NCBI GenBank assembly: GCA_017550315.1 | Contig: JAFZPN010000167.1 | Location: 2,018 to 66,017, forward strand | Direction: 5' to 3' | Length of the DNA stretch: 64,000 bases | Source: Clostridia bacterium | GTDB taxonomy: Bacteria > Bacillota > Clostridia > Oscillospirales > CAG-272 | Part shown: in pieces, positions 4,634-47,304 of the stretch | Position numbering within the stretch: the stretch's first letter is position 1 | How the letters are laid out: each line of letters starts with the position of its first letter | Notes under the pieces: model-generated | Told to the model about the DNA's origin: nothing | Databases searched by the model: none | Seen by the model: the letters and a program-made list of their open reading frames with translations, nothing else | Program-made: the position numbers and the translations under genes

Positions 4634-4692
4634 CTTGTGCGTTTCACACAAACCGAATGAATTTGTTTTGTCAGTTTGCACCAAAGAAAGCG

Positions 4693-4718
4693 GCCTGCCC
4701 ATGGAAACATCGGCAGGC
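4693..4718 (+). terminator. possible weak terminator hairpin
   Basis: GCCTGCC / GGCAGGC stem followed by TGTCTCTTGT. The U-tract is poor. Confidence 0.35.
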
Positions 4719-4724
4719 TGTCTC

Positions 4725-4753
4725 TTGTATCCGGATGTGAATTGTGTTATAAT
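4725..4753 (+). promoter_or_regulatory. promoter for the transaldolase-family gene
   Basis: TTGTAT (4725-4730), 17-nt spacer, TATAAT (4748-4753). Confidence 0.55.
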
Positions 4754-4786
4754 AGTACCGTAATCACATCAAAGGAAGTGTTAACT

Positions 4787-5467
4787 ATGTTATATCTGAT
4801 CGATACTGCCAATCTCGACGCGATCCGCACATGCTGCGAGTACTACCCCGTGGCGGGTGTGACGACGAATCCGACGATCATCTCGCGCGAGAATTCCGAT
4901 TTCAAGACGCTCGTGACCTCCATCCGGTCGATCATCGGCGACGAGCGGATGCTGCATGTCCAGACCACCGCGACCGAAGCCGAGGACATCGTGAAGGAGG
5001 CGGAAATGCTCCGCTCCCTCGTCGGCGGGAAGTTCTACATCAAGATCCCGATCACGAAGGAAGGGCTGAAGGCCGCGTCGGTCTGCAAGTCCCACGGCAT
5101 CGGCGTGACCATGACGGCGATCTTCACCCAGCCGCAGGCTCTCGTGGCGGCGCGCGCGGGTGCGGATTTCGTCGCGCCGTACATCAATCGCCTCGACAAC
5201 ATCGTCTCCGACGGCGTGCATGTCGTCGAAGAGATCGTCGACATCTACCGCCTGTATTCCCTGCCGACGCAGGTGCTCGCGGCCAGCTTCAAGAACGCCG
5301 AGCAGGTGCACAAGGTCTCCCTGACCGGTGCGCACGCGGTGACAATCAACCCCGATCTGTTCGACACGCTGCTCTACCATCCGCTGACGTTCTACGCCAT
5401 CGACGATTTCGCGAAGGACTGGGAGAATGTCTACGGGGAGAAAAAGGTCTCGGATCTGGTGAAATAA
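4787..5467 (+). CDS. transaldolase family protein (fructose-6-phosphate aldolase / TalC type)
   Basis: Start at ATG 4787 after AAAGGAAG. MLYLIDTANLD, GVTTNPTII, FYIKIPIT and TAIFT are characteristic of short transaldolases. Confidence 0.85.
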   Translation: MLYLIDTANLDAIRTCCEYYPVAGVTTNPTIISRENSDFKTLVTSIRSIIGDERMLHVQTTATEAEDIVKEAEMLRSLVGGKFYIKIPITKEGLKAASVCKSHGIGVTMTAIFTQPQALVAARAGADFVAPYINRLDNIVSDGVHVVEEIVDIYRLYSLPTQVLAASFKNAEQVHKVSLTGAHAVTINPDLFDTLLYHPLTFYAIDDFAKDWENVYGEKKVSDLVK

Positions 5468-11745: not shown

Positions 11746-11769
11746 TCTCTGAGTGACTGGACTTGAACC
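11746..11769. repeat. attL core (24-bp direct repeat of the tRNA-Pro 3' end)
   Basis: TCTCTGAGTGACTGGACTTGAACC is identical to 47205-47228. Confidence 0.85.
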
Positions 11770-12919: not shown

Positions 12920-13642
12920 TTATTCGTCGGGGCTCTCCTTTTCGATTTCTGAAAGATAACCGGCGGTGATGATACCGGACGGGAGGGCGACGATCGCGAT
13001 GCCGAAAACGGAAGAGAGCATCGTCACGACGCGCCCCATCACCGTCACCGGGTAAATGTCGCCGTAGCCCATCGTCGTCAAGCTCACCGTCGCCCAGTAG
13101 ACCGCGTCGAAGAAATTCCCGAAGCTGTCGGGCTCGACGTTGATGATGATGAGCGCCGAGACGAGGACGTACACGACGGCCAACGTGCCGACGGCGGCAA
13201 GCGGTTCGCGGGATCGGCGGAAGACCTTCGCGATGATCTGAATGCTCCGGGAGTACCGCGCGGCCTTGAACACCCGGAGGACTCGCAGCGCGCGGAACAT
13301 ACGCATCACGCGGAGAACCTTGAAACCGGAATTGAGGGCGGTGACGGACGGCAAGACAGACAGAAGATCGATCAAGGCCATAAACGAGAACGGGTACCGC
13401 ACGAAGGAAAGCACGGACCGCTTCCCGAACTTATAATCCGCAGTCAGCAGGCGGAGGAAATAGTCAAGAATGAAAATCCCCGCGCAGACCTTGTCCAGCA
13501 CCGCGAAAAAAGGCGGCTCTTCCTTGAAGGCGAGCGGAATGAGGGAGACGACGATCACGACCATCATAAAGGCGTCGTAAATTGCACTTACCCGGTCGCC
13601 GTCTTTCGACGTCTCAATGATTTCAAAAATGCGTTTTCTCAT
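12920..13642 (-). CDS. 6-TM voltage-gated K+ channel (Kv/KvAP-like), prophage-encoded
   Basis: Start at MRKRIFEII after GGAGG. S4 segment LRVMRMFRALRVLRVFKAARYSR has a basic residue every third position. Selectivity filter is TTMGYGD. Confidence 0.8.
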   Translation of the reverse strand: MRKRIFEIIETSKDGDRVSAIYDAFMMVVIVVSLIPLAFKEEPPFFAVLDKVCAGIFILDYFLRLLTADYKFGKRSVLSFVRYPFSFMALIDLLSVLPSVTALNSGFKVLRVMRMFRALRVLRVFKAARYSRSIQIIAKVFRRSREPLAAVGTLAVVYVLVSALIIINVEPDSFGNFFDAVYWATVSLTTMGYGDIYPVTVMGRVVTMLSSVFGIAIVALPSGIITAGYLSEIEKESPDE

Positions 13643-13917
13643 GGAGCCTCCGTTTCTTCGGCGGATTCCATTTCGACGGCGGAGAGGGCTGCCTCCGTCT
13701 CCGAAGCGTCGTCCTTGCTTCCCGGATCGCAGACCGCAAGAATCAGAGCAAGGGCGACGAAGAGCAGCAGGATCCAAACGCACCCGCTCGCGAGCTTCCC
13801 CTTCCATTTACGGGTCGAGGTAGAAATGCGCGTCCCCTTGGATCCGACGGAGAAACCGACGCCGCCGGAAGAAGACGCGCGCACCCGGACGGGACCGACC
13901 TTTTTTGAAAATCTCAT
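13639..13917 (-). CDS. DUF4236-like small membrane protein
   Basis: N-terminus MRFSKKVGPVRVRASSSGGVGFSVGSKGTRIS resembles DUF4236, followed by one TM helix and an acidic tail. ATGA overlaps with both neighbours. Confidence 0.6.
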   Translation of the reverse strand: MRFSKKVGPVRVRASSSGGVGFSVGSKGTRISTSTRKWKGKLASGCVWILLLFVALALILAVCDPGSKDDASETEAALSAVEMESAEETEAP

Positions 13918-14543
13918 GCGTGCCTCCTCGTCAAACTCTTTTGCAGCGTCACGGCCATGCCGATCACGCGGATCGTCTCGAGCTCGGGTCCTTGGTACAC
14001 CTGCGTCCGGAATGCCGGATTCGCGGGCGTGAGGATCAAGGTCGACGTCTCCGGGCGGTAGTCGATGTATTTGATCGTCGCCTCGTCCCCGATCAGAACG
14101 ACGGCGATGTACCCGTTTTCGACGACGTCCATTTGCTTTATAAAGACGATGTCCCCGTCGTCGATATGAGCGCCGGTCATGCTGTCTCCCTGCGCGACGA
14201 GGCAGAAATCCGCGTCGATGTCCCCGGACGCCGTGATCCAGGTCTCGCGGTCCTCGTCGGCGAAGATCGGCTCGCCGCACGCAACCTTCCCCAGAACGGG
14301 GAATTTTTTCTTTTTCACCGGATAAAAGCCGGAAAGCACTTCGGAATCATCCGAACGGCCGAGAAGATAGTCGATCGTCACATGGTAAAAATCGGCGATC
14401 TGAGCGAGCGTGGTATAATCCGGCTCTCTTTTCCCGAGCTCCCAGTTTCCGATGGCGGACTGCGTTACATTCAAGGCTTTCGCAAGTTCCGCCTGCGTGA
14501 GTTTTCGCTCTTTGCGAAGTTTAACAAGTCGTGAGGTGTTCAT
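13914..14543 (-). CDS. CI/LexA-like phage repressor (XRE HTH + S24 peptidase)
   Basis: HTH LTQAELAKALNVTQSAIGNWELGKR. S24 motifs VACGEPI and GDSM...DGDIVFIK. Start may be 14549 or 14543. Confidence 0.85.
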   Translation of the reverse strand: MNTSRLVKLRKERKLTQAELAKALNVTQSAIGNWELGKREPDYTTLAQIADFYHVTIDYLLGRSDDSEVLSGFYPVKKKKFPVLGKVACGEPIFADEDRETWITASGDIDADFCLVAQGDSMTGAHIDDGDIVFIKQMDVVENGYIAVVLIGDEATIKYIDYRPETSTLILTPANPAFRTQVYQGPELETIRVIGMAVTLQKSLTRRHA

Positions 14544-14556
14544 AATCATCCCCCTT

Positions 14557-14699
14557 TTATTTCATTCTGTCCAAATAATAACACACTCCGCTATAAAATA
14601 CAATAGCATTTTGTGTGTTTTTTAGAAAAACAACAAATTGAAATAAAACCCTTGACAGATAAAACGATATGTCATATAATATACATCAGAATGAAATAA
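14557..14699. promoter_or_regulatory. lysis/lysogeny switch with divergent promoters
   Basis: Plus strand: TTGACA 14652-14657, 17 nt, TATAAT 14675-14680. Minus strand: TTGTAT (RC of 14598-14603), 17 nt, TATTAT (RC of 14575-14580). A 13-bp inverted repeat TTATTTCATTCTG (14557-14569) / CAGAATGAAATAA (14687-14699) flanks both. Confidence 0.65.
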
Positions 14700-14713
14700 A
14701 CGGGAGGCAAAAA

Positions 14714-14920
14714 ATGAGACTGAAAGAAATTCGGAAACAGAAAGGGATGACCGCCGAAGAGGTCGGACGCGAAATCGGCGTCACGCAGGCGGCCATCGCA
14801 AACTGGGAGAACAACCGCCGAATCATGAACGTCGACACGCTCGTCCGCCTGTCTCAGGTCCTCGGCTGCACGCCGAACGACCTGCTCGGGTTTGAGACGA
14901 AGGAAGAGGAGAGGGCGTGA
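14714..14920 (+). CDS. Cro-like XRE-family HTH regulator
   Basis: Start at ATG 14714 after GGGAGG. HTH MTAEEVGREIGVTQAAIANWENNRR. Confidence 0.8.
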   Translation: MRLKEIRKQKGMTAEEVGREIGVTQAAIANWENNRRIMNVDTLVRLSQVLGCTPNDLLGFETKEEERA

Positions 14921-22968: not shown

Positions 22969-23340
22969 ATGAAAAACGCATGGAAAGAACGCACAGAAAG
23001 CCAGCAGAAAAAAGCGATTTCCGCCGAGATCAAGAGACTTGCGGCGCTCTTCGACGGACTTGAGGGGAAGAAGAAGGAGGTCGCGGACGGCCTGATCGAA
23101 GAGGCGGCTTTCATGCGCGTCCAGCTTGAAGAACTCAAGGCGAAGCTGCTGAAATATGGCTTCCTGGACGAAATGCCGCAGGGGAAATACACGATCACGC
23201 GCGAATCTCCATACAGCCGCGCCTATAACTCCATGATCCAGCGGTACACGACCGCGCTTGGCAAGCTCGCGGAGCTGCTCCCGAAGGAAGTCGCGGCGGA
23301 GGTGGACGATGGCTTCGACGACTTCCTCGAAACCCGCTGA
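22969..23340 (+). CDS. terminase small subunit (P27 family-like)
   Basis: Position, size (123 aa) and LIEEAAFMRVQLEELKAKL...ESPYSRAYNSMIQRY pattern. Confidence 0.7.
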   Translation: MKNAWKERTESQQKKAISAEIKRLAALFDGLEGKKKEVADGLIEEAAFMRVQLEELKAKLLKYGFLDEMPQGKYTITRESPYSRAYNSMIQRYTTALGKLAELLPKEVAAEVDDGFDDFLETR

Positions 23341-25042
23341 AAACCCGATCCTCGCGTACTGGGCGGAAATCTCCGCAGGGCGGGAAACCGTCGGAAAAAA
23401 AGTGCGCGCGGTTTACAGAAAGCTGGCGGACGACGTCGAGCATCCGGGACGATGGTTTTATTCCCAGGAAAGGGCCGAGCACGTGCTCCGTTTCGCTGAG
23501 GAATACTGCCACCACTCGAAGGGAAAGTACGGCGGGAAGAAGGTGCGCCTCGAACTCTGGGAGAGGGCCGCGCTGGCTGCCGTTTTCGGATTCATCGACG
23601 ACGAAGGGATCCGGAAGTATCAGGTATTCGCGCTTTTCGTCGGGAAGAAAAACGGGAAGTCGCTTCTCTCGTCGATCATCGGGAATTATATGCTGTTCGC
23701 GGACGGAGAAGCCGGTCCGGAAGTGTACGCCGTCGCGACGAAACGCGATCAGGCAAAAATTATCTGGGAAGAAGCGCGGCGCATGGTCCGCAAGTCCCCC
23801 GCCCTGCTCCGGCGTGCCCGCACCCTGGTCGCGGAGATCCTCACGGACTTCAACAACGGAAAATTTAAACCTCTCGCGTCGGACAAGGACACCCTCGACG
23901 GCCTCAACGTGAGCTGTGCGCTCATGGACGAGATCCATCAATGGAAAGCGGGCCGCGATCTGTACGACGTCATCGCGGACGGCGTCGCAGCCAGAGAGCA
24001 GCCGCTCATCGTCATCACGACGACGGCGGGTACCATCCGCGGCGACATTTACGACGAGAAGTACGAGGAATTCACACGGATCATCGAGGGGTATGAGAAC
24101 GGGAAGTACACGGACGATCGGGTGCTCCCGATCCTCTATGAGCTTGACAGCAGAAACGAGTGGAGCGATCCGGCGTGCTGGAAAAAAGCAAATCCGGGGC
24201 TCGGCACGATCAAAAATCTTGCAACGCTGGCCGAGAAGGTGGAGCGGTGCAAGGAAAACCCGCGGCTTTTGAAGAATGTTCTGTGCAAGGAATTCAACAT
24301 CCCGGAGACGACGTCGGAGTCCTGGCTGACCTTTGAGGAAATCAGAAACCGGGAGACATTCCGGATCCCGGACAAGCACGCGGAAAACTGGATCGGGCCG
24401 GAGGACGCCGAGACCATCCTCCGTCCGCGGTACGCGATCGGCGGCGTCGACCTGTCATCCACGACGGACCTGACCGCGGCGAAGATCATCTTCCAGGTCC
24501 CGGAAAGCGACAAGATCTTCGTGCACTCCATGTACTGGCTGCCGGAAGACAACCTCGAGCGGCGCGTGAAGGAAGACAAGATCCCCTATGACTTCTGGCA
24601 TGAGCGCGGGCTCGTCCGGCTGTCCCGCGGGAACAAGATCGATCCGCACGACGTGACGCTATGGTTCCGCGAACTTTGGGAGCAATACGACATCTTCCTC
24701 TATGCGATCGGATATGACGAGTGGGGCGCGGAAATGTGGGCATCGGAAATGCGGCAGACGTTCGGAGCGGACACGATGATCCCGGTCCGGCAGGGCGTGA
24801 AGACGCTTTCGGCACCCATGAAAGCGCTCGGCGCGGATCTGGCATCGCACCGGATCGTCTATAACGACAACCCAGTCGACGAGTGGTGCCTCGCCAACAC
24901 GACCTACGAAGAAGACAAAAACGGCAACATACAGCCAAAGAAAACGAACAACCCCCGCAGGCGCATAGACGGCGCGGCGGCTCTTCTGGACGCCTACACG
25001 GTTTTGTCCCAGAAGGAGGACGAATACAAAAACATTATTTGA
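23309..25042 (+). CDS. terminase large subunit
   Basis: Start at ATG 23309 after GGAGGTGG. Walker A-like FVGKKNGKS, ALMDEIH (Walker B) and the C-terminal nuclease region. Confidence 0.85.
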   Translation: MASTTSSKPAENPILAYWAEISAGRETVGKKVRAVYRKLADDVEHPGRWFYSQERAEHVLRFAEEYCHHSKGKYGGKKVRLELWERAALAAVFGFIDDEGIRKYQVFALFVGKKNGKSLLSSIIGNYMLFADGEAGPEVYAVATKRDQAKIIWEEARRMVRKSPALLRRARTLVAEILTDFNNGKFKPLASDKDTLDGLNVSCALMDEIHQWKAGRDLYDVIADGVAAREQPLIVITTTAGTIRGDIYDEKYEEFTRIIEGYENGKYTDDRVLPILYELDSRNEWSDPACWKKANPGLGTIKNLATLAEKVERCKENPRLLKNVLCKEFNIPETTSESWLTFEEIRNRETFRIPDKHAENWIGPEDAETILRPRYAIGGVDLSSTTDLTAAKIIFQVPESDKIFVHSMYWLPEDNLERRVKEDKIPYDFWHERGLVRLSRGNKIDPHDVTLWFRELWEQYDIFLYAIGYDEWGAEMWASEMRQTFGADTMIPVRQGVKTLSAPMKALGADLASHRIVYNDNPVDEWCLANTTYEEDKNGNIQPKKTNNPRRRIDGAAALLDAYTVLSQKEDEYKNII

Positions 25043-25079
25043 CGCTACGGCGGGCGGGTTGGAGGGAAAATATTCGGAC

Positions 25080-25937
25080 ATGAACGAACAGATGGAGCTT
25101 TTCCCGGGGAGCGAATACGCGGCCTTCGTGGACAAGTTCAAACCCAAAAAGACGACGGACGACTGCTACACGCCGGAGGCGGTGTACGAAGCGGTCGCGG
25201 ATTTTGTTGTAAATAGATACGGCATCGACCGATCGCGTTTTGTACGCCCGTTTTGGCCGGGCGGCGATTTTGAACGGTATGATTATAAACCGGGAGACGT
25301 CGTCGTAGACAATCCGCCGTTTTCGATTTTCAGCGCGATCACATGGTTTTATCAGGGAAAGGGGATCGACTTCTTCCTCTTCGGGCCGACATTGACGCTG
25401 TTCTCGGCTGCTCCGGAATGCTGTGTGCTTCCGACGGGCGTCGGGATCATTTACGAGAACGGAGCGGATATAAACACGTCATTTGCGACCTCTCTCGAGC
25501 CGGGACTTCGGATCGCGACACGGCCGGAACTGTTCCAGGCGGTCGACAAGGCAAACCGCGAGGAACAGGCGAGAAGAGTGAAGAGCGTGCCGAAATATGA
25601 ATACCCGGACAGCGTCATCACCGCGGCGCGCGCTTATCAGTATGCCCAGCACGGCGTCACGTTTGAGGTGCCGACGAAAGAGTGCGTCAAGGTCAGAAAA
25701 CTTGATGCGCAGGACGCCTACGGGAAAGCGATTTTCGGCGCGGGGTATCTCCTTTCGGAGCGCTGCACGAAACTGAAAGCGGCAGCGGAAAAAGCGGCAG
25801 CGGAAAAAGCGGCAGCGGAAAAAGCGGCAGCGGAAAAAGCGGCAGCGGAAAAAGCGGCAGCGGAAAAAGCGGCAGCGGTACGCTGGAAACTCAGCGACCG
25901 CGAAGAGCAGATCCGGGCATTGCTTTCGGAGGAATAA
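25080..25937 (+). CDS. EcoRI-methylase-like N6-adenine DNA methyltransferase with C-terminal (AAAEK)n repeat
   Basis: DDCYTPEAVYEAV and VVVDNPPFSIF (motif IV DPPF) followed by FFLFGP, as in EcoRI-type adenine MTases. Start is ambiguous (TTG 25059 / ATG 25080). Confidence 0.6.
   Translation: MNEQMELFPGSEYAAFVDKFKPKKTTDDCYTPEAVYEAVADFVVNRYGIDRSRFVRPFWPGGDFERYDYKPGDVVVDNPPFSIFSAITWFYQGKGIDFFLFGPTLTLFSAAPECCVLPTGVGIIYENGADINTSFATSLEPGLRIATRPELFQAVDKANREEQARRVKSVPKYEYPDSVITAARAYQYAQHGVTFEVPTKECVKVRKLDAQDAYGKAIFGAGYLLSERCTKLKAAAEKAAAEKAAAEKAAAEKAAAEKAAAEKAAAVRWKLSDREEQIRALLSEE
25776..25878 (+). repeat. perfect 15-bp tandem repeat, about 6.9 copies
   Basis: AAAGCGGCAGCGGAA repeated head to tail. 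Encodes (AAAEK)6 within the methyltransferase C-terminus. Confidence 0.95.
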
Positions 25938-25938
25938 A

Positions 25939-27150
25939 ATGAAATTCTTCGACAAACTTTTCGGGAGGGTCCGTTCTCCCACCGGGCGCGCCGGGAAACG
26001 CGAGCAGATCCGGATGGTCGAGCAGCAGAAAAGCACCATCATGGGGTGGGACTGGGATCTCTATTCCTCCGACATCGTGCGGTCGGCGATCCGCCCAAAG
26101 GCAAAAGCGATCGGGAAGATGACCATGCACCATATCCGCGAGAATCAGCGGACGCGGGAAAAGGCCGTCGACCCGGAGCCGTATATGCGCTTCCTTCTGC
26201 GCGAGCCGAACGCATACATGACGATGCAGATGATGCTCGAATACATGATCACCCGGAAGGAGCTGACCGGCAATGCCTTCGCGCTGATCGTACGCGATGG
26301 AAACGGGCTCCCGGTGGAGCTCTTCCCCATTCCCGCCGTCACGACGCAGGCCGTCATTGACGAGCGCGGGGAAATCGTTATCCGGTTTACCTTCCGGAAC
26401 GGAAACAAGTCCGAGGTCAAGTACGAGGACTTGATCCACCTCCGCGGCGACTATGCGGAAAACGACATCCTCGGCACAACGCCGAAGCGCGCGCTGTCCG
26501 GGGTGATGGAGGTGATCGCGGCATCCGATCAATCCGTGATTGCCGCCGTCAAGAACTCCTCCGTCGTCCGCTGGATCATGCGGCTGCTCGTCCCGAAGAG
26601 AGACGAAGACGTCAAGGCGGCCGCGGAAAACTTTGCAAAGTCATTCCTGCTGTCGGAGGACGGCGGCTTCGGCGTCGCCGCGCACGACAACACGACAGAG
26701 CTGAAAGAAGTGCAGCCGCATGACTTCGTCCCGAACGCGGCGAACATGGACCGCACGATGAAGCGGGTGCAGGCGTTCTACGGTACGAACGACAAGATCA
26801 TCACGTCGAGCTATACCGAAAACGACTGGCTCGCATACTATGAGGCCGAAGTCGAACCGGACGTGAAACAGATCTCCGAGGAATTCACACGGAAGATCTT
26901 TTCCCGCCGGGAGAGGGCGGTCGGAAATTATATCCTCTGCGAGGCGGCGTCCTTACAATATGCCTCCATGCAGACGAAGCTCTCCCTCGTCTCGTGGGTC
27001 GACCGCGGCGCGATGAGCGTGAACGAACTCCGCGCGCTGCTGACGCTGCCGCCGGTGCCGGGAGGCGACGTGATGGTCCGCCGTCTCGACACGGTGCCAG
27101 TCGACAAACCGGAGGACAAAAATCCCGAGGAAGGAGGTGACGACGAATGA
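25939..27150 (+). CDS. portal protein (HK97 family)
   Basis: Position after the terminase, size (403 aa), typical portal core, and ATGA overlap with the protease gene. Confidence 0.85.
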   Translation: MKFFDKLFGRVRSPTGRAGKREQIRMVEQQKSTIMGWDWDLYSSDIVRSAIRPKAKAIGKMTMHHIRENQRTREKAVDPEPYMRFLLREPNAYMTMQMMLEYMITRKELTGNAFALIVRDGNGLPVELFPIPAVTTQAVIDERGEIVIRFTFRNGNKSEVKYEDLIHLRGDYAENDILGTTPKRALSGVMEVIAASDQSVIAAVKNSSVVRWIMRLLVPKRDEDVKAAAENFAKSFLLSEDGGFGVAAHDNTTELKEVQPHDFVPNAANMDRTMKRVQAFYGTNDKIITSSYTENDWLAYYEAEVEPDVKQISEEFTRKIFSRRERAVGNYILCEAASLQYASMQTKLSLVSWVDRGAMSVNELRALLTLPPVPGGDVMVRRLDTVPVDKPEDKNPEEGGDDE

Positions 27151-27830
27151 AGCTCAAAATCAAAGGTGACATCATCGACAACGACAGCAAATGGATCTAT
27201 GACCTTTTTAAAATCGACGCGACGTGCCCGAAGGACGTCGACGCGATCCTTGACGCCTGCGAAGAAGGAGAACCTCTCGACGTGGAGATCTCCTCCGGCG
27301 GCGGCATGATTCACGCAGGGTCGGAAATCTATACCGCCCTGCTGGATTATAAAAAGGGCCCGGTGACGATCAAGGTGACAGGGCTCGCAGCGTCCGCGGC
27401 GTCCGTGATCGCGATGGCCGGCCGGTGCGAAATGTCGCCGACCGCGCTGATGATGATTCACAATGTGTCCGGCGGCGCGCGCGGTGATTACCGTGACATG
27501 GAGCACTTCGTGGAGGTCCTCAAAACCGCGAACGAATCGCTGATCACGGCATACGCGAGAAAGACCGGCCTGGATCGCAAAGAGCTCGCCCGCATGATGG
27601 ACAAGGAGACCTGGATCACGGCGGAGAGGGCCGTCGAGCTGGGCTTCGCGGATGCGATCATCGGGGATGCCGAGATTGAGCCGCTCGTCGCATCGACGGG
27701 GCTGACGATCAACCCGGAGGCGATCGAGAAAATCCGCGCGATGATGCGTGCGAAAGAAGCAGAAGATACCAAGACCAAAAAGGCCCGCGCATGGGTCGAA
27801 CTTGAAATGCTGAAAGGAGCAGAAAAATGA
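27147..27830 (+). CDS. head maturation protease (ClpP/S14 family)
   Basis: ISSGGGMIHAGSEIY...GLAASAASVIAMAG...MIHN contains the Ser/His ClpP-like motifs. Confidence 0.85.
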   Translation: MKLKIKGDIIDNDSKWIYDLFKIDATCPKDVDAILDACEEGEPLDVEISSGGGMIHAGSEIYTALLDYKKGPVTIKVTGLAASAASVIAMAGRCEMSPTALMMIHNVSGGARGDYRDMEHFVEVLKTANESLITAYARKTGLDRKELARMMDKETWITAERAVELGFADAIIGDAEIEPLVASTGLTINPEAIEKIRAMMRAKEAEDTKTKKARAWVELEMLKGAEK

Positions 27831-29056
27831 GAAGAGAAGAATACCTTGAAAAGCGCGCCGAACTGCTGAATCAGGCGAAGGCCGCGACTGCCGACGGCAA
27901 GCTCGAAGACTTCGAGGCCATGAAGAAGCAGATCGAAGAGCTCGACGCGAAGTTTGAGCTCGAAGCCAAGGCGGAAGCCAACCTTGCCGCCCTGGAAAGA
28001 GGCGTCGTCGTTTCGAAGACGGCGATCGGCGTCGGCGTCGGAACGAAGTCTGAAGACGAAGACGACGAAGCGGCAACCGACACCTACAAAACCGCCTTCC
28101 TGAAGGCGATGATGCACCGCGGCCTGAACGACGCCGAAAAGAAGTCGTTCGCAGCCGTCAACGGCGACGAACTCGTGAACGCTGGCACTCAGACCGCCGC
28201 AAACCATCCCGCCGTGATCCCCGTGACCATGATGCGCGAAATCTGGTCCGAAATGGCGGAGCAGCATCCCATCATCGCGGATTCCGCGGCATCCAGAACA
28301 TACGTCCGCGGAAAGGTGACGATCCCCACCGCCGACGTCAGCGGGGACGGCGAGTGGTACGACGAGGCGACGGCGACCGTGCCGAGCGCAATCACGAGCG
28401 CAAACATCGAGCTCGACGGACACGAGCTGGCCAAGGCCGTGACCATTTCGTGGAAGCTCTACGAAATGTCCCTCGAAGACTTCGAGGCATTCCTCCGTAG
28501 AAAGCTCGCCGAGAAGATGGGAAACGCGATCGCGACCGCGTTCGTGACCGGCCCCGGCATCCCCGGCCAGGGCGATTCCTTCAAGCCGCAGCCGCTCGGT
28601 GTCATCACCGCCCTCGAAGCGGAGACCTCCACCCCGCAGGTCATCACCTACACCGCGGCGAACGGCATTTCCTATGCCAACCTGACGGCGGGCATGGGCG
28701 TGCTGCTCTCCGGCTATGTTTCCGGCTCCGCGATCTACGCGAAGAGCACCACGATCTGGACGCTGCTCGCGAACATCCTCGACACCACAAAGCGCCCGAT
28801 CTTTGTCCCTGACGTAACCGCGGGCGGCGTGGGCCGTATGTTCGGGATCCCGGTCAAGGCGGAAGACGCCGTTCCGACGGGCAAGGTTCTCGGCGGCAAC
28901 TACGCGCGCGGCTACGTTTCCAACGTGAACCGCGACGTCGAGATCCTCACCGAAGATCATGTTCTCGCCAGGACGACCGACTACAGCGCGTACGCGATCC
29001 TCGACGGCAAACCGATGACGACGAAGGCATTCTTCCTCATCGAGCCGAGCACCTGA
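27827..29056 (+). CDS. major capsid protein (HK97 fold)
   Basis: N-terminal coiled-coil delta-like domain followed by a ~300-aa capsid core. Sits after the protease with an ATGA overlap. Confidence 0.85.
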   Translation: MRREEYLEKRAELLNQAKAATADGKLEDFEAMKKQIEELDAKFELEAKAEANLAALERGVVVSKTAIGVGVGTKSEDEDDEAATDTYKTAFLKAMMHRGLNDAEKKSFAAVNGDELVNAGTQTAANHPAVIPVTMMREIWSEMAEQHPIIADSAASRTYVRGKVTIPTADVSGDGEWYDEATATVPSAITSANIELDGHELAKAVTISWKLYEMSLEDFEAFLRRKLAEKMGNAIATAFVTGPGIPGQGDSFKPQPLGVITALEAETSTPQVITYTAANGISYANLTAGMGVLLSGYVSGSAIYAKSTTIWTLLANILDTTKRPIFVPDVTAGGVGRMFGIPVKAEDAVPTGKVLGGNYARGYVSNVNRDVEILTEDHVLARTTDYSAYAILDGKPMTTKAFFLIEPST

Positions 29057-29080
29057 CCATAACGAAAGGAGGCGGAGAGC

Positions 29081-29371
29081 ATGACGGAGGAGGTACTGAG
29101 AGAGGCTCGGCTTGCGGCGGGCATCGCATCCGATGACGACACGCACGATTCGACCGTGACGGCGCTGATTCTGGCGTGCTCCGCTGACCTCAAATCCGCG
29201 GGTGTTCCCCGGCCCGTGGAGAGCCACCCACTCTATACGCAGGCCGTCCGGTTTTATATCCACGCCTACGGCTGGACTGAACCGGACGCCGAGCGCTGGG
29301 GGAAATGCTATGAAAATCTCCGTGCGATGATGCGCCACGATACGGGAGGCACCTATGCCGGGAGCCGTTGA
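29081..29371 (+). CDS. head-tail connector (gp6-like)
   Basis: Size, position and the LREARLAAGIASDDDTHDSTVTALILA pattern of gp6-like connectors. Confidence 0.6.
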   Translation: MTEEVLREARLAAGIASDDDTHDSTVTALILACSADLKSAGVPRPVESHPLYTQAVRFYIHAYGWTEPDAERWGKCYENLRAMMRHDTGGTYAGSR

Positions 29372-29621
29372 ACACACTTCCGTCACGATCGGCGGAAAGC
29401 GCGTCCCTGCGCAGAAAACGGAGATCACACAGCGCGAATACTTCCAGGCGGCAGCGGTAGGTCTCAAGCCTTCCGCGCGCTACACCGTGCGGGGTGACTA
29501 CTACAACGGAGAAGACCGGCTGACGACGCACAAGGGCGAGGTCCTCGCGATCTACCGGAGCTATCGGGACGGCGCATGGGTCGAGCTCTACTGCGAACGG
29601 AGGACGGGCGTGCATGGGTAA
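29355..29621 (+). CDS. head closure / head-tail adaptor protein
   Basis: Size and position. SPP1 gp16-like pattern ...YTVRGDYY...LAIYRSY. Confidence 0.55.
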   Translation: MPGAVEHTSVTIGGKRVPAQKTEITQREYFQAAAVGLKPSARYTVRGDYYNGEDRLTTHKGEVLAIYRSYRDGAWVELYCERRTGVHG

Positions 29622-30018
29622 AACGTACACAATCGACCTCGTCGGGCAGGCGGTCGAAGACGCCGTCCGGGGCTATGTCAAAGGCGCGGGCGCGGCGGTA
29701 AAGCGGGCCGTGGAACGATGCGCGGCAGAAACGAACGCGGAGATCAAAGCGCACTCAATCTTCAAGCGAAGGACGGGCGCGTATGAAAAGGCGTTTGCGC
29801 TGAAAGTCGTCCACGTCGACGAAATGAACGAGCGGATCCGCTGGTATGTCAAGGCGCCGCACTATCGGCTCACGCACCTGCTCGAATTCGGGCACCGCAT
29901 CGTCGACCGAAACGGGCGGATGCACGGAACGAAGAGGCCGATCCCGCACATCGAATACGGCGAAGCGCTCGCGCAGAAACGTCTTCCGCAGCTCATCGAG
30001 GAGGAAATGCAGAAATGA
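29614..30018 (+). CDS. HK97 gp10-family tail component
   Basis: AETNAEIKAHSIFKRRTGAYEKAF and HLLEFGH motifs. Confidence 0.6.
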   Translation: MGKTYTIDLVGQAVEDAVRGYVKGAGAAVKRAVERCAAETNAEIKAHSIFKRRTGAYEKAFALKVVHVDEMNERIRWYVKAPHYRLTHLLEFGHRIVDRNGRMHGTKRPIPHIEYGEALAQKRLPQLIEEEMQK

Positions 30019-30347
30019 CGCGTGACACTATCGAAGCGATTCTCACAGCGCTTGACATCCCCTTCGGGTACGGCGATCTCACCAATCCGATGACGCCGTA
30101 CGCCGCGTATTATGTTCAGGACACCGTCTTCACGGCTCCGGATGATTACGGCGGCGTGACAACACGAGAGGACAACGCGACGATCGAGCTGTACACGACC
30201 GGAAAGGACTGGGAGCTTGAGGACAGGCTCGAAGCCATGATCGAGCAATACAGCCCGCGCAAGCACGAGGAGCGGAACTACTACGAGGAGGTGTGGCAGA
30301 TCACCTACACCTTCACGATCAAAACAAAGAAAAGGAGAATATCATGA
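30015..30347 (+). CDS. tail completion/terminator-like protein
   Basis: Assigned from position only. ATGA overlaps on both sides. Confidence 0.4.
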   Translation: MTRDTIEAILTALDIPFGYGDLTNPMTPYAAYYVQDTVFTAPDDYGGVTTREDNATIELYTTGKDWELEDRLEAMIEQYSPRKHEERNYYEEVWQITYTFTIKTKKRRIS

Positions 30348-30901
30348 GCGATAAAATCGTTCTGGGGTCCGGCTATCTGTACGTAACCGAATTCACGGGC
30401 GGGACCATTCCCGCCGACAACGTGATCGAAGTCGACGCAAACCGGCTCGGATATATCAAGGGCGGCGCGACGCTTACCTATACGCCAACCTGGTACAAGG
30501 CGATCGACGACATGGGGCGCGTCTCGAAGTCGATCAAGACCGACGAAGTGGCGACGCTGAAATCCGGCATCATGACGTGGGACGGCGAAACGCTGAAAAA
30601 ACTCGTTTCCAACGCGCGGCTGACGACCCAGGCGGCGACATCTTCCGCAGCCGGAAAGCGGACGCTCAAAATCGGCGGCGGATCTGACGACGGGAAGATG
30701 TACCTCATCCGCTTCCTCCATCCGGACGCGGCGGACGGGGACATGCGCGTCACCGTCATCGGAAAGAATCAGGCGGGCTTCGAGATCGCCTTCGCGAAGG
30801 AAAACGAAACGGTCATCGACGCGGAGTTCACGGCATTCCCGGCGGACAGCGACGGGACGCTCATTCAGATCGACGAGACGATTCCGCAGCTCTCGGCATA
30901 A
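30344..30901 (+). CDS. major tail protein
   Basis: Position upstream of the chaperone and tape measure, 185 aa, beta-rich. Confidence 0.6.
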   Translation: MSDKIVLGSGYLYVTEFTGGTIPADNVIEVDANRLGYIKGGATLTYTPTWYKAIDDMGRVSKSIKTDEVATLKSGIMTWDGETLKKLVSNARLTTQAATSSAAGKRTLKIGGGSDDGKMYLIRFLHPDAADGDMRVTVIGKNQAGFEIAFAKENETVIDAEFTAFPADSDGTLIQIDETIPQLSA

Positions 30902-30913
30902 TCGGAGGCAAAC

Positions 30914-31210
30914 ATGCTGACGCTGAAAACGAAGGACATCCCGACCCTTGAGATCGAGCTTTTGAGCGGGGAGCAGATCCACGTGCTTCCCGCGACGAAG
31001 CGCATCATTGACAGCATGGCGGGATTCGATCCGAAAAGCAGAAACACAGGCGAGATGTACAAGCTCCTCGCGGTGATTCTCTCGCACAATCGGGAAAACA
31101 TCCCGGTCACGGTGGAGGATCTCGAGGACGTCCCGGTGTCGACCATCGCCGAGATCATGCGAGAGTACACCGCTTTCATCAACGGCAAAATCAACAGCGC
31201 AAAAAACTGA
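30914..31210 (+). CDS. tail assembly chaperone (G-like)
   Basis: Position directly before the tape measure. Ends in the slippery A_AAA_AAC followed by TGA. Confidence 0.6.
   Translation: MLTLKTKDIPTLEIELLSGEQIHVLPATKRIIDSMAGFDPKSRNTGEMYKLLAVILSHNRENIPVTVEDLEDVPVSTIAEIMREYTAFINGKINSAKN
31201..31207 (+). promoter_or_regulatory. -1 programmed ribosomal frameshift slippery heptamer AAAAAAC
   Basis: A_AAA_AAC sits immediately before stop 31208-31210. The -1 frame is open for 90 codons. Confidence 0.6.
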
Positions 31211-31479
31211 CGATCCCGTACTATCCCTCCGGGGATGGTACGGGACAATACGATACAGAGACGAGAGCCGAGAAGCTGGTCGCCGATTATGCGCGGATCT
31301 CCATCTTCGAGGTCGAGGACCTCTGTTATTATACCTATCGGCTCCTGCTCCGCGACGCGGTGATCCACGCCTGCGAGAGCACGCCGTCCGGGCGCGAATA
31401 CCTTGAAAAGTGCTGGACGCTGGAACAGACGGAGCCGGACCGCGAGAAACTCCGCGAAGTCTTCGGGAAAGGAGAGTGA
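31207..31479 (+). CDS. -1 frameshift extension of the tail assembly chaperone (G-T type fusion with 30914..31207)
   Basis: ATG-less open frame LTIPYYPSGDG...REVFGKGE ending at TGA 31477-31479, just before the tape measure ATG. Confidence 0.55.
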   Translation: MTIPYYPSGDGTGQYDTETRAEKLVADYARISIFEVEDLCYYTYRLLLRDAVIHACESTPSGREYLEKCWTLEQTEPDREKLREVFGKGE

Positions 31480-31483
31480 CGTC

Positions 31484-33595
31484 ATGGCAGATAAGATCCA
31501 GGGAATCACCGTCGAGATCGGCGGCGACACAACGGGCCTGTCGAACGCGCTGAAAGACATAAACAAGGAATCGAACAGCCTGTCCAAAGAGCTGCGCGAC
31601 GTCGAAAAACTTCTCAAGCTCGACCCGACGAACACGGAGCTCCTCGCCCAGAAGCAGGAGCTTCTTGCAAAACAGGCGGAAACGGCGGCAAAGCGCGTCG
31701 ACGCCGTGAAACAGGCCCAGGACGCGATGAACAAGATGATCGCGTCCGGGGAGATCGAAAAAGGATCCGCGGAGTACCGGAAGTTCGAGCGGGAAGTCGC
31801 GAGCGCAGAGGCGAGCCTCAAGAAGGCCGAGGACGCGCAGAAAGAATTCGGGAAGCAGCATTCTGCGATCGCAAAAGTCAAGGAAGCCGTCGCGGGCGTA
31901 AAGGACAAGCTCGACGATCTCAAGAACACGAAATTCGGGGAGGCTGTCTCCGCGGGCTTCGACGCGATCAAGAGCGCGGCAAAGGCGACCGTGGACGCTG
32001 TCGCCGTGGTAGGAGCAGCCGTCGCCGCCGGGATCGGCGCAGGCGCAAAGGTGATCGCGGACGCGACGACATCCGCCGCCGTATATGCCGACAATTTCGC
32101 GACGCTCTCCGTCCAGACAGGCGTCGCGACGGATACCTTGCAAGCCTACGCCGCTGTCTCGGAGCTCGTCGACGTTTCCACAGAAACGCTGACCGGCTCC
32201 ATGACGAAAAACTTTCAGGCGATGCAGAAGGCGGCGGACGGAAATGAGAAGCTCACGGCAGCTTATCAGACGCTCGGCGTAACCGTCACCGACGAAAACG
32301 GGAAACTGCGCGACAGCGAGACCGTTTACTGGGAAATGATCGACGCCCTCGGGCAAGTCGAGGACGAAACGGAGCGCGACGCGCTTGCGATGGAGATCTT
32401 CGGCAAAAGCGCGAAGGAGCTGAACCCGCTGATCGAAACCGGAAGCGAAGCACTTCACGGCATGATGGAGGAGGCAAAGGCTTCCGGCGCGGTGCTTTCG
32501 GAGGAGACGCTCTCTTCCCTGCTCGAAGTTTCCGACGCGATGGAAAAGGCGAAGACCGGCGCGGAAGCTGTGCAGAACAATTTCGGCGCACTCGGCGCGA
32601 CGCTGATGACCGAGGTGTATTCCGGAATTTCGGAAGTCGAAAGCGCGTTCACCGCGATGATCGCGGCGGCGGCAAACGGCGAAGAAATCACCGACGAAAT
32701 GAAGGAGAATTTCGCAAACTCCATCGTCGAAATGGTCCGCGGCGTGGCCGAGGCGCTCCCTGCCCTGCTTGAGGCCCTCGCAGAGATATTCGAGGCGGCG
32801 CTTGAAGCGATCGGAGAAGCCCTGCCGATGATTTCGGAGACGCTGATCAAATACCTGCCGCAGCTCACGCAGACGATTTTGTCCTTTCTTCCGACGATCC
32901 TCGAGGTGGGCTTGCAGCTGTTCCTTGCCCTGATCGGAGCGCTGCCGGAGATCATCAAACAGATCTGCGCAGCCATTCCTCAGATTATCACGGCACTTGT
33001 GGACGTTCTGCTGTCGGATCAAATGATCAATCAGATCATCGAAGCGGGGATCGAGCTGCTCATCGCGCTCGTCGAGAACCTGCCGCAGATCATCAAAACC
33101 ATCGTCGCCGCGATCCCGAAGATCATTTCGGCGCTCGTCAAAGCGTTCACCGATAACAAGGATAAAATCAAAGAGGTCGGCACCGACCTGATCAAGGGCC
33201 TGTGGGAAGGTATAAAAGATATGGCGGGCTGGATCAAGGAAAAGGTATCGGGATTTTTCAGCGGCGTCGTCGACAGCGTGAAGGACTTCCTCGGCATCCA
33301 TTCCCCGTCGAAAGTTTTCCGGGATGAGATCGGGCGGATGCTCGCGCTCGGCATCGGAGAGGGATTCGAGGACGAGATGAAGGAGGTCCGCGCGGACATG
33401 GAAGACGCGATCCCGACGAGCTTCGACACGGAAGTCAATACCGCATGGGGCGCGATCACGGGAGGTTTCGGCGACGTGTTCGACGTCACAATCCCCTTTA
33501 TGATCGGCGCCGAAAAAATCACGACGGCGGTGTCCCGCGTGCAGTATAACCGGCAGACGGGGCAGGCGCGCGTCCTGGGGGTAACATACGCATGA
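31484..33595 (+). CDS. tail tape measure protein
   Basis: 703 aa, Ala/Glu/Lys-rich helical. N-terminal ITVEIGGDTTGLSNALKDINKE is a typical TMP start. Confidence 0.85.
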   Translation: MADKIQGITVEIGGDTTGLSNALKDINKESNSLSKELRDVEKLLKLDPTNTELLAQKQELLAKQAETAAKRVDAVKQAQDAMNKMIASGEIEKGSAEYRKFEREVASAEASLKKAEDAQKEFGKQHSAIAKVKEAVAGVKDKLDDLKNTKFGEAVSAGFDAIKSAAKATVDAVAVVGAAVAAGIGAGAKVIADATTSAAVYADNFATLSVQTGVATDTLQAYAAVSELVDVSTETLTGSMTKNFQAMQKAADGNEKLTAAYQTLGVTVTDENGKLRDSETVYWEMIDALGQVEDETERDALAMEIFGKSAKELNPLIETGSEALHGMMEEAKASGAVLSEETLSSLLEVSDAMEKAKTGAEAVQNNFGALGATLMTEVYSGISEVESAFTAMIAAAANGEEITDEMKENFANSIVEMVRGVAEALPALLEALAEIFEAALEAIGEALPMISETLIKYLPQLTQTILSFLPTILEVGLQLFLALIGALPEIIKQICAAIPQIITALVDVLLSDQMINQIIEAGIELLIALVENLPQIIKTIVAAIPKIISALVKAFTDNKDKIKEVGTDLIKGLWEGIKDMAGWIKEKVSGFFSGVVDSVKDFLGIHSPSKVFRDEIGRMLALGIGEGFEDEMKEVRADMEDAIPTSFDTEVNTAWGAITGGFGDVFDVTIPFMIGAEKITTAVSRVQYNRQTGQARVLGVTYA

Positions 33596-35298
33596 GCAAA
33601 ATCTATCTCAACAGCGGAGGCGAGAGGCACGCGCTGGAGCACATCGGAGAGGGCGCGGCCCTGACCGAGGCCCTGAGCGGAGAGCAGACCCTCCGCTTCA
33701 CCGTTTTACCGGAGGATCTGAAATTCCTGACGGAAGGGATCCCGCTTCTCGAAAACAACGACGAACCGATCCTGACAAACGACGACCTCGTGATCTACGC
33801 CAGCAGCCTTGCGAAATTCTACGGAGCAGCGCTGGTGGAATTCGAGGGGCAATATTATGATATCGCATCGGTGCGGCTTTCCGGAAATCACCTTGCGGCC
33901 TTCGCGGAGGTGAGCACGGAGCACGTCACCTACAGGCTCAACCGCCCGGAATACAACATTCAAAGCCTCAACCTCGGCGGGACATACGCGCAGGTCCTCG
34001 CGCGGATCCTCGACGGAACGGAATTCACGCCGGGGACGACGCCGACCGGGACGCTCGACACGACCGTGATCGAAGGCGTCACGCGCCGCGAAGCGCTCAA
34101 CACCGTCGCCGAGCTGATGGGCGGGGAGCTGGACTTCGACGGGTGGACCGTCAACGTCGTCGCACATCGCGGAAGCACGCAGCGCGTCGACCTGATGGCG
34201 ACCGGGAATATCTCCGCGGTGGAGGTAGACGAAAATCTCGTCACGGGTGAGACTGCGTACCGCGTCGGCCTGATCCAGCGCGGCAGCCTTGCCGTCGGCG
34301 ACGAGGTGAAGATCGTGTTCCGACCGTTCGGCCTCGACGCCGAGACGCGGATCATCGAAATGACGCGGAATCCGTACAAGGAAACGGAATGCACGATCAC
34401 CGTCGGCGCGCACATCCCGGAGATCACGGACACCTTTGTCGACGTGACGCGGAAGGTGCTTTATAAATCCGAAGCCGATATCACGATCAGTAAATACATC
34501 AACTCCGCCGAGGGGACCGCTGAACTTGTGGCGGCGCTCTCCGGATCTTACGTGACGCAGTCGCAGCTCGAGGATTATCCGACGTTTTCGGAGCTGGACG
34601 CTGAGATCGGCGCATACATCGACGGACAGGAAGGGACCGCGAAGATCATTTCGGCGGCCTCCGGGACCTATCAGACCATCGCAGACATGAGCGACTATGC
34701 GACAACGCAGGCCGTGAGCACGGCGATCACGCAGGCGGTCAGCCCCGTCGCTGCTGAGATCGACATGACGGCGGCGTACGGAAGCGGGACGATCGGGTCG
34801 GAAGTCCGCGCGCTGCTCCAACTTGTCGCAAACCCGGACAGCTCGCAGATCATGCTCAAGGCGTCAAAAATCACGCTGGACGGAGACCTGCACGTGCAAA
34901 AAGTCTTCTACTACGACGGCACAAATTATTATTTGATGCTGACCGGGCAGATGGAAAGCGAAGCAACAATCACGCACGTCGGACCGAAAGACATTGACCC
35001 GAATGCAACAGGAGTCCAAATCGCACAAAGGACTTTCATCTATGGGACGCAGATCATCTTCGGAATCGGCAGTAAAAACCTTTTAACGGACAGCGACAGC
35101 CTTCTTGTAATTCCTTCAACGCATAGAATTATTCCGAATACTGACGAAGTATGGACACTCGGAACAAACAGCAGCATTTTCTCCGCAGTATTTTCAAGAT
35201 ATTACTATTTTCACGACGGAACATATTTGCACACGTCGGCAGGTGGCACGCGCCTGTATTGGCACGACAGCAACGACGACGACAGAAGGATTTTCTGA
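33592..35298 (+). CDS. tail-associated minor structural protein (Tal-like)
   Basis: ATGA overlap with the TMP. N-terminal pattern ...LSGEQTLRFTV...YYDIASVRL...EHVTYRL resembles phage minor structural protein N-terminal regions. Confidence 0.5.
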   Translation: MSKIYLNSGGERHALEHIGEGAALTEALSGEQTLRFTVLPEDLKFLTEGIPLLENNDEPILTNDDLVIYASSLAKFYGAALVEFEGQYYDIASVRLSGNHLAAFAEVSTEHVTYRLNRPEYNIQSLNLGGTYAQVLARILDGTEFTPGTTPTGTLDTTVIEGVTRREALNTVAELMGGELDFDGWTVNVVAHRGSTQRVDLMATGNISAVEVDENLVTGETAYRVGLIQRGSLAVGDEVKIVFRPFGLDAETRIIEMTRNPYKETECTITVGAHIPEITDTFVDVTRKVLYKSEADITISKYINSAEGTAELVAALSGSYVTQSQLEDYPTFSELDAEIGAYIDGQEGTAKIISAASGTYQTIADMSDYATTQAVSTAITQAVSPVAAEIDMTAAYGSGTIGSEVRALLQLVANPDSSQIMLKASKITLDGDLHVQKVFYYDGTNYYLMLTGQMESEATITHVGPKDIDPNATGVQIAQRTFIYGTQIIFGIGSKNLLTDSDSLLVIPSTHRIIPNTDEVWTLGTNSSIFSAVFSRYYYFHDGTYLHTSAGGTRLYWHDSNDDDRRIF

Positions 35299-35689: not shown

Positions 35690-35979
35690 TGGAAAACGAA
35701 AGAATCCTCAAAGCGCGCCTCGGCCTCGCAAAACTGGCAAACACGGAATTCCCCGCCCCGATCCTCGACCTTCTCACGCCGACGCTCGACGCGGCGGATC
35801 CAGTGATCGGCGAAGCGCTGAAACTCGACGCGGCGGAAGAGAGCGAGGAGCTCAAAAAGTTCCTCAAGAAAGAAACGGATATTCCGGTCTGTGTTCTGCC
35901 GAGCCTGCCAGACATCCGCATGACATACATCGATCGGAGAAACCTGCGCGGGATCGTGGAGTTTGAGGAGGTAGTATAA
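35686..35979 (+). CDS. hypothetical tail-module protein
   Basis: ATGA overlap upstream and TAATG overlap downstream. Confidence 0.45.
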   Translation: MMENERILKARLGLAKLANTEFPAPILDLLTPTLDAADPVIGEALKLDAAEESEELKKFLKKETDIPVCVLPSLPDIRMTYIDRRNLRGIVEFEEVV

Positions 35980-37835: not shown

Positions 37836-37839
37836 TGAT

Positions 37840-45898: not shown

Positions 45899-46150
45899 AT
45901 GAAAACCATCATCTTCAACAACGTCGAATTCACCGCCTGCACCGCCATCGCTGTAAGCATCGGCGACACCGAACGACAGAACGCCGTCTTCGTTCACGAC
46001 CTTAACGACGAATTCCGCAACGGCGATTTCGTGGCATTCGGGTACGATCTCCCCGAGGACGAGGATGACGCCAAGAACATCCTCTTCGACAATTCCGCGC
46101 AGTCCACAGAACAGGAGGACCTCGACACTGCGGAATGGGACGAGGCCTGA
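45899..46150 (+). CDS. small highly acidic protein
   Basis: 83 aa, roughly 20 Asp/Glu versus 4 Lys/Arg. RBS GGGAAGGAAAG. Confidence 0.5.
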   Translation: MKTIIFNNVEFTACTAIAVSIGDTERQNAVFVHDLNDEFRNGDFVAFGYDLPEDEDDAKNILFDNSAQSTEQEDLDTAEWDEA

Positions 46151-46154
46151 GCCG

Positions 46155-47279: not shown

Positions 47280-47304
47280 ATCCGATGCTTTTGACAGCCC
47301 TTGT

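Follow-up and report, generated by a model that had tools for sequence, protein, structure and literature searches.

The window, the whole 64,000-nucleotide stretch of DNA analysed here, comes from a genome described as that of a rumen or gut Clostridia and contains an intact siphovirus-like prophage of ~35.5 kb integrated in tRNA-Pro. The immunity operon of this prophage encodes, in this order, a cI-type S24 repressor, a truncated single-pass membrane protein, a potassium channel of the voltage-gated Kv type with six transmembrane helices (6TM) and a tyrosine integrase. As judged by sequence comparison, the channel is a captured host gene that is kept by selection inside phages: channels of this family recur, polyphyletically, in temperate phages of Firmicutes and in at least one actinobacterial element as the gene that precedes the integrase or recombinase, often with a stop/start overlap that joins them to the repressor or to the gene after it, and the channel appears to be a selected cargo of the slot that holds superinfection-exclusion genes in Gram-positive phages. 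The channel probably benefits the lysogen, by phage exclusion or through potassium physiology.

Judging by its motifs, the 240-amino-acid channel is an ordinary member of the Kv/Ion_trans family and a predicted voltage-gated K+ channel. The Pfam model Ion_trans matches residues 21-229, spanning S1-S6, with 106.5 bits (cut-off 25), Ion_trans_2 matches at 2.1e-15, and the closest solved structures, Kv2.1, KCNQ2 and Kv1.2, align at E ~1e-24 over S2-S6, the alignment including the S4 arginines and the acidic countercharges of S2 and S3. Both the S4 string LRVMRMFRALRVLRVFKAARYSR and the selectivity filter TTMGYGD, which an initial annotation of the sequence had assigned to this protein, are found in it; the filter occupies residues 189-195 and aligns with the TTVGYGD of Kv2.1. 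Across 23 relatives the S4 charges (R111, R114, R117, R120, R123, K126 and R129) and the acidic countercharges D60 (S2) and D92 (S3) are all invariant, and the filter varies at position 191 only. The protein has no cytoplasmic regulatory domain, and an AlphaFold2 monomer model built from 23 close homologues shows a helix pattern that fits S1-S6 plus the pore helix, with low confidence (pLDDT 57). NCBIfam models match the channel only far below threshold (the hyperpolarisation-activated MVP-type model scores 44 bits against a cut-off of 300), and the gating polarity is therefore not assignable. We infer that the channel adds a voltage-gated K+ conductance to the membrane and acts autonomously: since the order cI-channel-int exists without any small gene between repressor and channel (locus L106), the channel would act alone, with the small membrane protein as an option.

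To place the gene in its wider setting, we compared genomic contexts from metagenome-assembled genomes (MAGs) and metagenomic contigs, with neighbours classified by tblastn and small ad hoc hidden Markov models; the resulting counts are lower bounds. In 11 of the 80 species-representative genomes with a channel relative, the channel is followed on the same strand, at a distance of no more than 1.7 kb, by a tyrosine integrase or a serine recombinase, and three more integrase or recombinase matches (INT/SREC) are found elsewhere in the ±6 kb flanks, one of them in L046, which is already counted. Metagenomic prophages with channels 79-93% identical to that of the window show the same pattern. At 26-62% identity, channels in three cultured phages, the Lactobacillus phages PLE2 and JNU_P5 and Dulem virus 33, occupy the same position in the lysogeny module, where they follow a repressor or an ImmR/ImmA pair and are annotated as 'ion transporter'. 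The orders observed are cI(S24)-channel-int (L044, L046 and L106), helix-turn-helix (HTH) gene-channel-int or recombinase (L026, L090, L101, L115 and Dulem virus 33), HTH-ImmA-...-channel (PLE2, JNU_P5, L027 and L068) and HTH-(transmembrane (TM) + Ada-like protein)-channel-int (L108, and L025 with the same order on a contig that ends at the channel). In L044/L046, Dulem virus 33, L018/L024 and JNU_P5, the channel is joined by an ATGA stop/start overlap to the gene before it, a repressor or a small gene, and the channel stop overlaps the recombinase start in L101 and L108. Given that the ATGA junctions recur in diverged relatives and that the genes are under purifying selection (see below), the arrangement is not due to chance.

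The locus L101 (5528-8246), in an Eggerthellaceae MAG, shows the HTH-channel-serine recombinase layout in an actinobacterial genome, and the pattern thus reaches beyond Firmicutes. In lactobacilli, the PLE2-type channel is found in a mixture of prophage and non-phage contexts. We discounted the channel matches in records named 'Acinetobacter phage MD-2021a' (CAKLQH020000004.1 and CAKLQF020000002.1): as acnB and ydhP adjoin the channel, these look like mislabelled bacterial contigs. Our literature searches on Kv channels of prophages and phages, including the PLE2, JNU_P5 and Dulem virus 33 genes, found no functional study.

The origin of the gene is indicated by its relatives. The channel family comprises 7,855 database clusters at E<=1e-10, mainly from gut and rumen Clostridia, and at most of the 80 species loci the channel is not accompanied by phage genes. 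While the identical protein is present on 14 contigs, all of the same prophage, and a 93%-identical channel belongs to a related prophage with the order cI, 206-amino-acid small protein, channel, int, an 84%-identical orthologue sits in the chromosomal context SbcCD-MurJ-GDPD-channel-PepF and a 75%-identical channel lies within a purine operon. In a neighbour-joining tree of 91 copies, the window clade is sister to the 84%-identical host copy, and the copies with a phage context are scattered over at least 10 positions in the tree. It is the chromosomal orthologue, the sister placement in the tree and the mostly chromosomal distribution of the family that argue for host capture. Searching S4, the filter and S6 for residues that separate phage from host copies, we found none.

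Between prophage copies, the ratio of non-synonymous to synonymous substitution rates (dN/dS) of the channel is 0.061 and 0.085 at dS 0.75-0.94; the repressor (0.15-0.24) and the small protein (0.15-0.18) both lie above it. These selection data disfavour the idea of a neutral passenger, i.e. host DNA picked up by imprecise recombination and functionless in the phage. High identity to the host gene is what such an accident would leave behind, but dN/dS of 0.06-0.09 over dS ~0.8-0.9 and repeated independent capture, always in the same position, speak against it, and we rate it as the most improbable of the explanations considered here.

A separate observation concerns chromosomal channels 72-74% identical to that of the window. 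In L110, L113 (with a Type III restriction-modification (R-M) system) and L114 (with an MmeI-type R-M system), the channel forms a block with a SymE toxin and a ComM-like gene, and the region resembles a hotspot for defence islands with the channel at its edge. We considered these R-M neighbourhoods as a possible sign of a defence function and rejected them: the channel-SymE-ComM block is constant and the R-M system beside it varies, so that the channel looks like the flank of the island.

The initial annotation had taken the window genes for a Rex-like operon in which the 92-amino-acid protein encoded between repressor and channel, assigned to DUF4236, partners the channel. The DUF4236 identity is poorly supported. 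Against the family model (PF14020) the protein scores 18.3 bits (E 0.0033, model positions 6-38 of 55), below the gathering score of 27; 3 of the 11 members of the small-protein family reach DUF4236 at E<0.01; and hhalign of the family (A2) against the DUF4236 protein of L019, which itself scores 64.5 bits to Pfam, returned a 4.6% probability over 19 columns. By eye, the stretch RFSKKVGPVRVRASSSGGVGFSVGSKGTRIS of the small protein is similar to the DUF4236 consensus; overall, the link is weak. Of the Pfam families expected in the operon, Ion_trans and Peptidase_S24 were thus recovered, while DUF4236 stayed sub-threshold.

The small-protein family consists of ten 90%-identity clusters. A search of 1.84 billion representatives with this family gave thousands of matches, nearly all to the C-terminal Ada-like domain; the N-terminal family is limited to two 50%-identity clusters among these proteins. 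In full-length members (168-234 amino acids), a basic N-terminal stretch is followed by a single TM helix, an acidic/proline linker and, at the C-terminus, the cysteine motif HYxWC...CxRCHG, which is related to Ada_Zn_binding-type domains and predicted to form an extracellular Ada-like zinc domain. Compared with L010 and L018, the window gene carries a clean in-frame deletion of the linker and the Ada-like domain that keeps the ATGA junction, and a second 92-amino-acid variant, 88% identical, indicates that the short form persists. Searching for the small protein by tblastn against a phage database, and against IMG/VR, gave no matches, and a search for literature on DUF4236 returned essentially none.

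A window-type small gene stands beside the channel only in its own clade (the window, L010 and L024), and true DUF4236 genes abut the channel in just two further lineages (L019 and L021/L023). In L106, the channel is 88% identical to the window's and the order is cI-channel-int, with no small gene. From the opposite direction, we surveyed 80 viral DUF4236 loci (L116-L195, IMG/VR loci fetched with DUF4236 N-termini): a channel lies within 3.5 kb in 2 of the 80, a tyrosine integrase in 30, a serine recombinase in 11 and an S24-type repressor match in 31. The expectation that a DUF4236 and Ion_trans pair would be syntenic in other prophages thus fails, given that a channel is near in just 2 of 80 loci and that L106 has no small gene. 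The loss of the extracellular domain, L106 and the 2 of 80 together lead us to conclude that the pair is not a conserved two-component system and that there is no RexA-like sensor.

A Rex-like arrangement, with the DUF4236-like protein sensing infection and gating the Kv channel in the manner of RexA and RexB or of a KCNE-type subunit, is accordingly a poor candidate, and we regard it as very unlikely. It would account for the translational coupling of the small gene on both sides, for the purifying selection on its N-terminal part, for the true DUF4236 genes that abut channels and for the fact that, among the 6,251 open reading frames (ORFs) of 91 channel loci, all matches to DUF4236, to the 'MKxGxRKPS' family described below, to the TM + Ada-like proteins and to the window-type N-terminus lie on the same strand as the channel and adjoin it. 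However, the window copy has lost its entire extracellular domain, most phage-borne channels have no such neighbour or a different one (ImmA, or the repressor directly), the N-terminal family is as narrow as given above, and neither RexA nor RexB homology was found; the viral DUF4236 loci, about half of them with an integrase or repressor, point instead to the sharing of a slot. We favour the reading that DUF4236 proteins and Kv channels are common cargo of one slot, or that the small protein is an optional accessory.

Two further observations on small genes next to channels are worth recording. A family with the N-terminus MK(V/F)G(F/A/M)RKPS(I/V/L)K+S(I/F)KARTTGK ('MKxGxRKPS') lies beside the channel in four independent loci (L045 6771-7598, L052 6780-7223, L070 6701-6949 and L080 2209-2679); one member has a TM2 domain, and the family is absent elsewhere in the ±6 kb flanks. 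On one viral contig, L019, a Lipoprotein_Ltp gene of the superinfection-exclusion type (4210-4980, E 1.6e-36) is followed first by a true DUF4236 gene and then by the channel and a serine recombinase. It may be that DUF4236 proteins form a class of membrane or exclusion proteins of prophages that has gone unrecognised.

The expression of the channel in the lysogen is well supported by the layout of the operon. The three minus-strand ORFs are chained by ATGA overlaps exactly where the initial annotation had placed them: the repressor stop (13914-16) overlaps the ATG of the small gene (13915-17) in CGC ATGA GA, and the stop of the small gene (13639-41) overlaps the ATG of the channel (13640-42) in TCC ATGA GA. 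The integrase, 90% identical to that of the related prophage L010, begins 43 nt past the channel stop and is the final gene of the minus-strand lysogeny unit. We searched the minus strand from the repressor to the end of the integrase gene for a terminator and found no convincing one. As the channel is coupled to the repressor or to the next gene in independent phages as well, the earlier proposal that it is expressed in the lysogen from the repressor operon is sound, and its translational chaining to the repressor suggests that it is made continuously there.

The repressor itself carries HTH_3 (2.6e-17, 63 bits) and Peptidase_S24 (1.3e-20, 73.6 bits) domains in Pfam; a serine motif, GDSM, and a candidate cleavage site, Cys-Gly, can also be seen in its sequence. 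Its coordinates stand except for the start, which is probably 14543 (209 amino acids, as called on identical contigs) and not 14549. The placement of the trio between the integrase and the genetic switch was borne out: the switch (14552..14700) is intact, with three operator-like copies that flank or overlap the divergent promoters and a perfect cro promoter. A GGGAGG ribosome-binding site precedes the cro start at 14714. The alternative start at 14669 given in the ORF list was rejected in its favour, as this ATG lies inside the cro promoter, whose -10 hexamer is at 14675-14680.

Sharing one unit with cI and int, with no terminator detected, the channel might also serve the phage life cycle: made together with the repressor and the integrase when lysogeny is established, or sensing the membrane potential, it would modulate the choice between lysis and lysogeny, spontaneous induction or an untimely triggering of the holin. 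The overlap of the channel stop with the recombinase start in several phages (L101 and L108) would suit such a role, as would the influence of the membrane state on phage entry and on the choice of lysogeny (PMC10274716). We nevertheless consider it unlikely: no link of a K+ conductance to repressor cleavage or to the integrase is known, the channel is missing from many related phages, and the gene is a recent and repeated capture from hosts and not part of a conserved phage core.

The coordinates of these genes and of the other prophage features are listed in Table 1. Attachment-site (att) repeats, an integrase, a divergent switch and a packaging, head and tail module together identify an integrated temperate prophage; in the structural module, PHROGs E-values are 4.4e-152 for the terminase, 3.2e-62 for the portal, 7.8e-74 for the protease, 8.5e-52 for the major head protein and 5.3e-76 for the tape measure.

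Table 1. Features of the prophage and of its lysogeny module; positions are those of the window
Feature	Position	Strand	Evidence and remarks
attL, 24-bp direct repeat TCTCTGAGTGACTGGACTTGAACC	11746..11769	.	exact match to 47205-47228; duplicates tRNA-Pro 3' end
Tyrosine integrase, 355 aa	11809..12876	-	Phage_integrase 1.3e-12; phrog_1 integrase 1.3e-51
Kv-type 6TM potassium channel, 240 aa	12920..13642	-	Ion_trans 1.7e-30; phrog_7872 2.9e-39
Single-pass membrane protein, 92 aa	13639..13917	-	ATGA overlaps at both ends; TM ~residues 45-63; basic N-terminus, acidic tail
Repressor (CI/LexA-type, HTH_3 + Peptidase_S24)	13914..14549	-	Pfam; phrog_4 transcriptional repressor 6.7e-43
Genetic switch, three 16-18-nt operator-like motif copies (CAGAATGAAATAAA type)	14552-14569, 14630-14647, 14683-14700		repeat search, families D1, I1, I2
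Lytic (cro) promoter	14652..14680	+	12/12 consensus, TTGACA-17-TATAAT
Cro-like HTH protein, 68 aa, divergent from repressor	14714..14920	+	HTH_3 4.5e-17; 68-aa call on identical contigs
Structural module: large terminase, portal, head protease, major head protein, tape measure, tail protein	23258..35298	+	PHROGs
attR, overlapping 3' end of intact tRNA-Pro(GGG) 47206-47280	47205-47228	-	ARAGORN and repeat search

Elsewhere within the prophage, a low-GC segment at 35979-38787 (GC 0.47 vs ~0.59) encodes a 618-amino-acid protein with partial Peptidase_S11/beta-lactamase-like matches and a 315-amino-acid protein with no family match; one possibility is a tail-fibre/receptor-binding module, another a module that was acquired separately. 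An HNH endonuclease (46065-46814; phrog_374, 1.9e-28) is the last large gene before attR and would come to lie on the integrase side of the att junction in the circularised phage. Outside the prophage, there is another low-GC patch at 54001-56000 (GC 0.46), with minus-strand ORFs at 54203-54961 and 54945-55910.

As to the benefit for the lysogen, we tentatively propose, with a confidence somewhat short of even, that the channel serves phage exclusion or abortive infection without the help of a separate sensor. The membrane would be depolarised when a superinfecting phage adsorbs or its DNA enters, the S4 sensor would respond and the pore would open; the ensuing K+ loss and change in turgor or membrane potential would block DNA entry or early development of the incoming phage, and this block would protect the prophage. 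Phage adsorption is known to depolarise cells ahead of DNA entry, and depolarisation impedes entry (PMC10274716). The slot also has a precedent: phage TP-J34 has its exclusion gene, ltp, in the interval from int to the repressor, and the prophage transcribes it there (PMC3952083); in L019, an Ltp homologue is located two genes upstream of the channel. A broader version of this proposal, in which temperate phages of Firmicutes repeatedly domesticate the host Kv channel as a sensorless anti-phage effector, with the single-pass proteins (DUF4236-like and TM + Ada-like) as possible, optional KCNE-like modulators, seems to us rather doubtful.

Several points weigh against exclusion. The phage copy shows no change relative to host orthologues that would hint at a new, toxic or specially triggered function, there is no conserved sensor partner, and no PADLOC model matched either the channel or the small protein. 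The expected effect of a K+ channel activated by depolarisation is to repolarise the cell, and this could just as well be a housekeeping or stress benefit; neither the direction nor the threshold of gating is readable from sequence. The R-M-adjacent chromosomal relatives, as said, look like the flank of an island and not like evidence of defence by the channel. Finally, a role in establishing lysogeny would also be compatible with co-transcription with int.

The other possible benefit is lysogenic conversion: an extra, constitutive Kv copy would make the lysogen fitter by improving K+ uptake or release, adaptation to osmolarity or pH, or the way it recovers after depolarising stress in a K+-rich gut or rumen, and it would not act directly on other phages. 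Because the phage copy is indistinguishable from its host orthologues, in every functional motif and at 84% identity to a gene in a housekeeping context, we take conversion to be nearly as likely as defence. The mostly chromosomal family, with one copy in a purine operon, agrees with it, as do the lacking sensor partner and the silence of PADLOC; weak support comes from the finding that, among the 80 loci returned by a pattern-limited search over incomplete MAGs, genomes with a prophage-borne channel have no second close copy. On the other hand, at least 10 phage lineages have convergently captured the channel into an exclusion-gene slot, which is more typical of phage-phage conflict, and the nearest host lineages already have the gene, so that an added copy would often be redundant.

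Either outcome would bear on the function of bacterial Kv channels, a long-standing question that recurrent capture by phages turns into an experimental one, with a cultured system at hand in phage PLE2 of Lacticaseibacillus casei BL23. If the exclusion proposal is true, bacterial immunity would have voltage sensing as a further trigger besides nucleotide signalling and protein sensing; this would be the first immune device made from a voltage-gated channel, and a bacterial Kv channel would for the first time have a clear physiological task. If it is instead a fitness gene, the operon would clearly exemplify how a phage-borne gene controls membrane potential and K+ in gut and rumen bacteria.

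In comparison with known systems, the protein is of the KvAP/KvLm type, with which it shares the 6TM architecture, a basic S4 residue at every third position, the S2/S3 countercharges, the TxGYGD filter and the lack of a cytoplasmic ligand-binding domain; it differs in that the window copy is prophage-borne and part of a repressor operon. What bacterial Kv channels do physiologically is poorly understood. The PLE2 and JNU_P5 channels differ from it in their neighbours, with ImmA replacing the small membrane protein. In phage lambda, infection leads to depolarisation of the cell by RexB, a membrane channel. As in lambda cI-rexAB, membrane-channel genes follow directly downstream of the repressor, in the position of the maintenance transcript, and to this extent the proposed parallel with cI-rexA-rexB is apt; it does not extend to homology, as no PADLOC match to RexA or RexB was obtained and Ion_trans is unrelated to RexB. 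Moreover, RexB has four TM helices and neither a voltage sensor nor a K+ filter, and the window operon has no RexA-like cytoplasmic sensor, its small gene being truncated and optional.

Virus-encoded K+ channels are also known from eukaryotic algae. Depolarisation driven by Kcv has been linked to infection and to the exclusion of further viruses, and the site proposed for its action is the virion membrane, during entry. In contrast to the 6TM channel described here, which would be expressed in the lysogen, Kcv is a minimal 2TM pore without a voltage sensor; what Kcv and Kesv of chloroviruses and phycodnaviruses share with it is that they are virus-encoded K+ channels with a canonical filter (the family is reviewed in PMC7019647). 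The initial annotation knew of no exclusion or abortive-infection system built from a Kv-type channel with a DUF4236 partner; in line with this, PADLOC gave no hit and our literature searches gave no study of a prophage Kv channel. However, channel-based abortive infection as such is known from RexAB and from HalA of Hailong, so that only the Kv-type building block is new. In Hailong, the tetrameric ion-channel effector HalA opens, depolarises the cell and aborts infection (PMC13434031), and for a related phage-satellite system an IRK potassium-channel domain has been noted (PMC13586616). While HalA is gated by oligodeoxyadenylate made by HalB, the window locus has neither a nucleotidyltransferase nor a ligand-binding crown, and gating would be by voltage. 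Lastly, while Ltp of Streptococcus thermophilus phage TP-J34 is an extracellular lipoprotein that blocks DNA injection, and is neither an ion channel nor host-derived, its gene occupies the same slot between int and the repressor, on the repressor strand, and is likewise a prophage-expressed gene with a membrane-associated product (PMC3952083).

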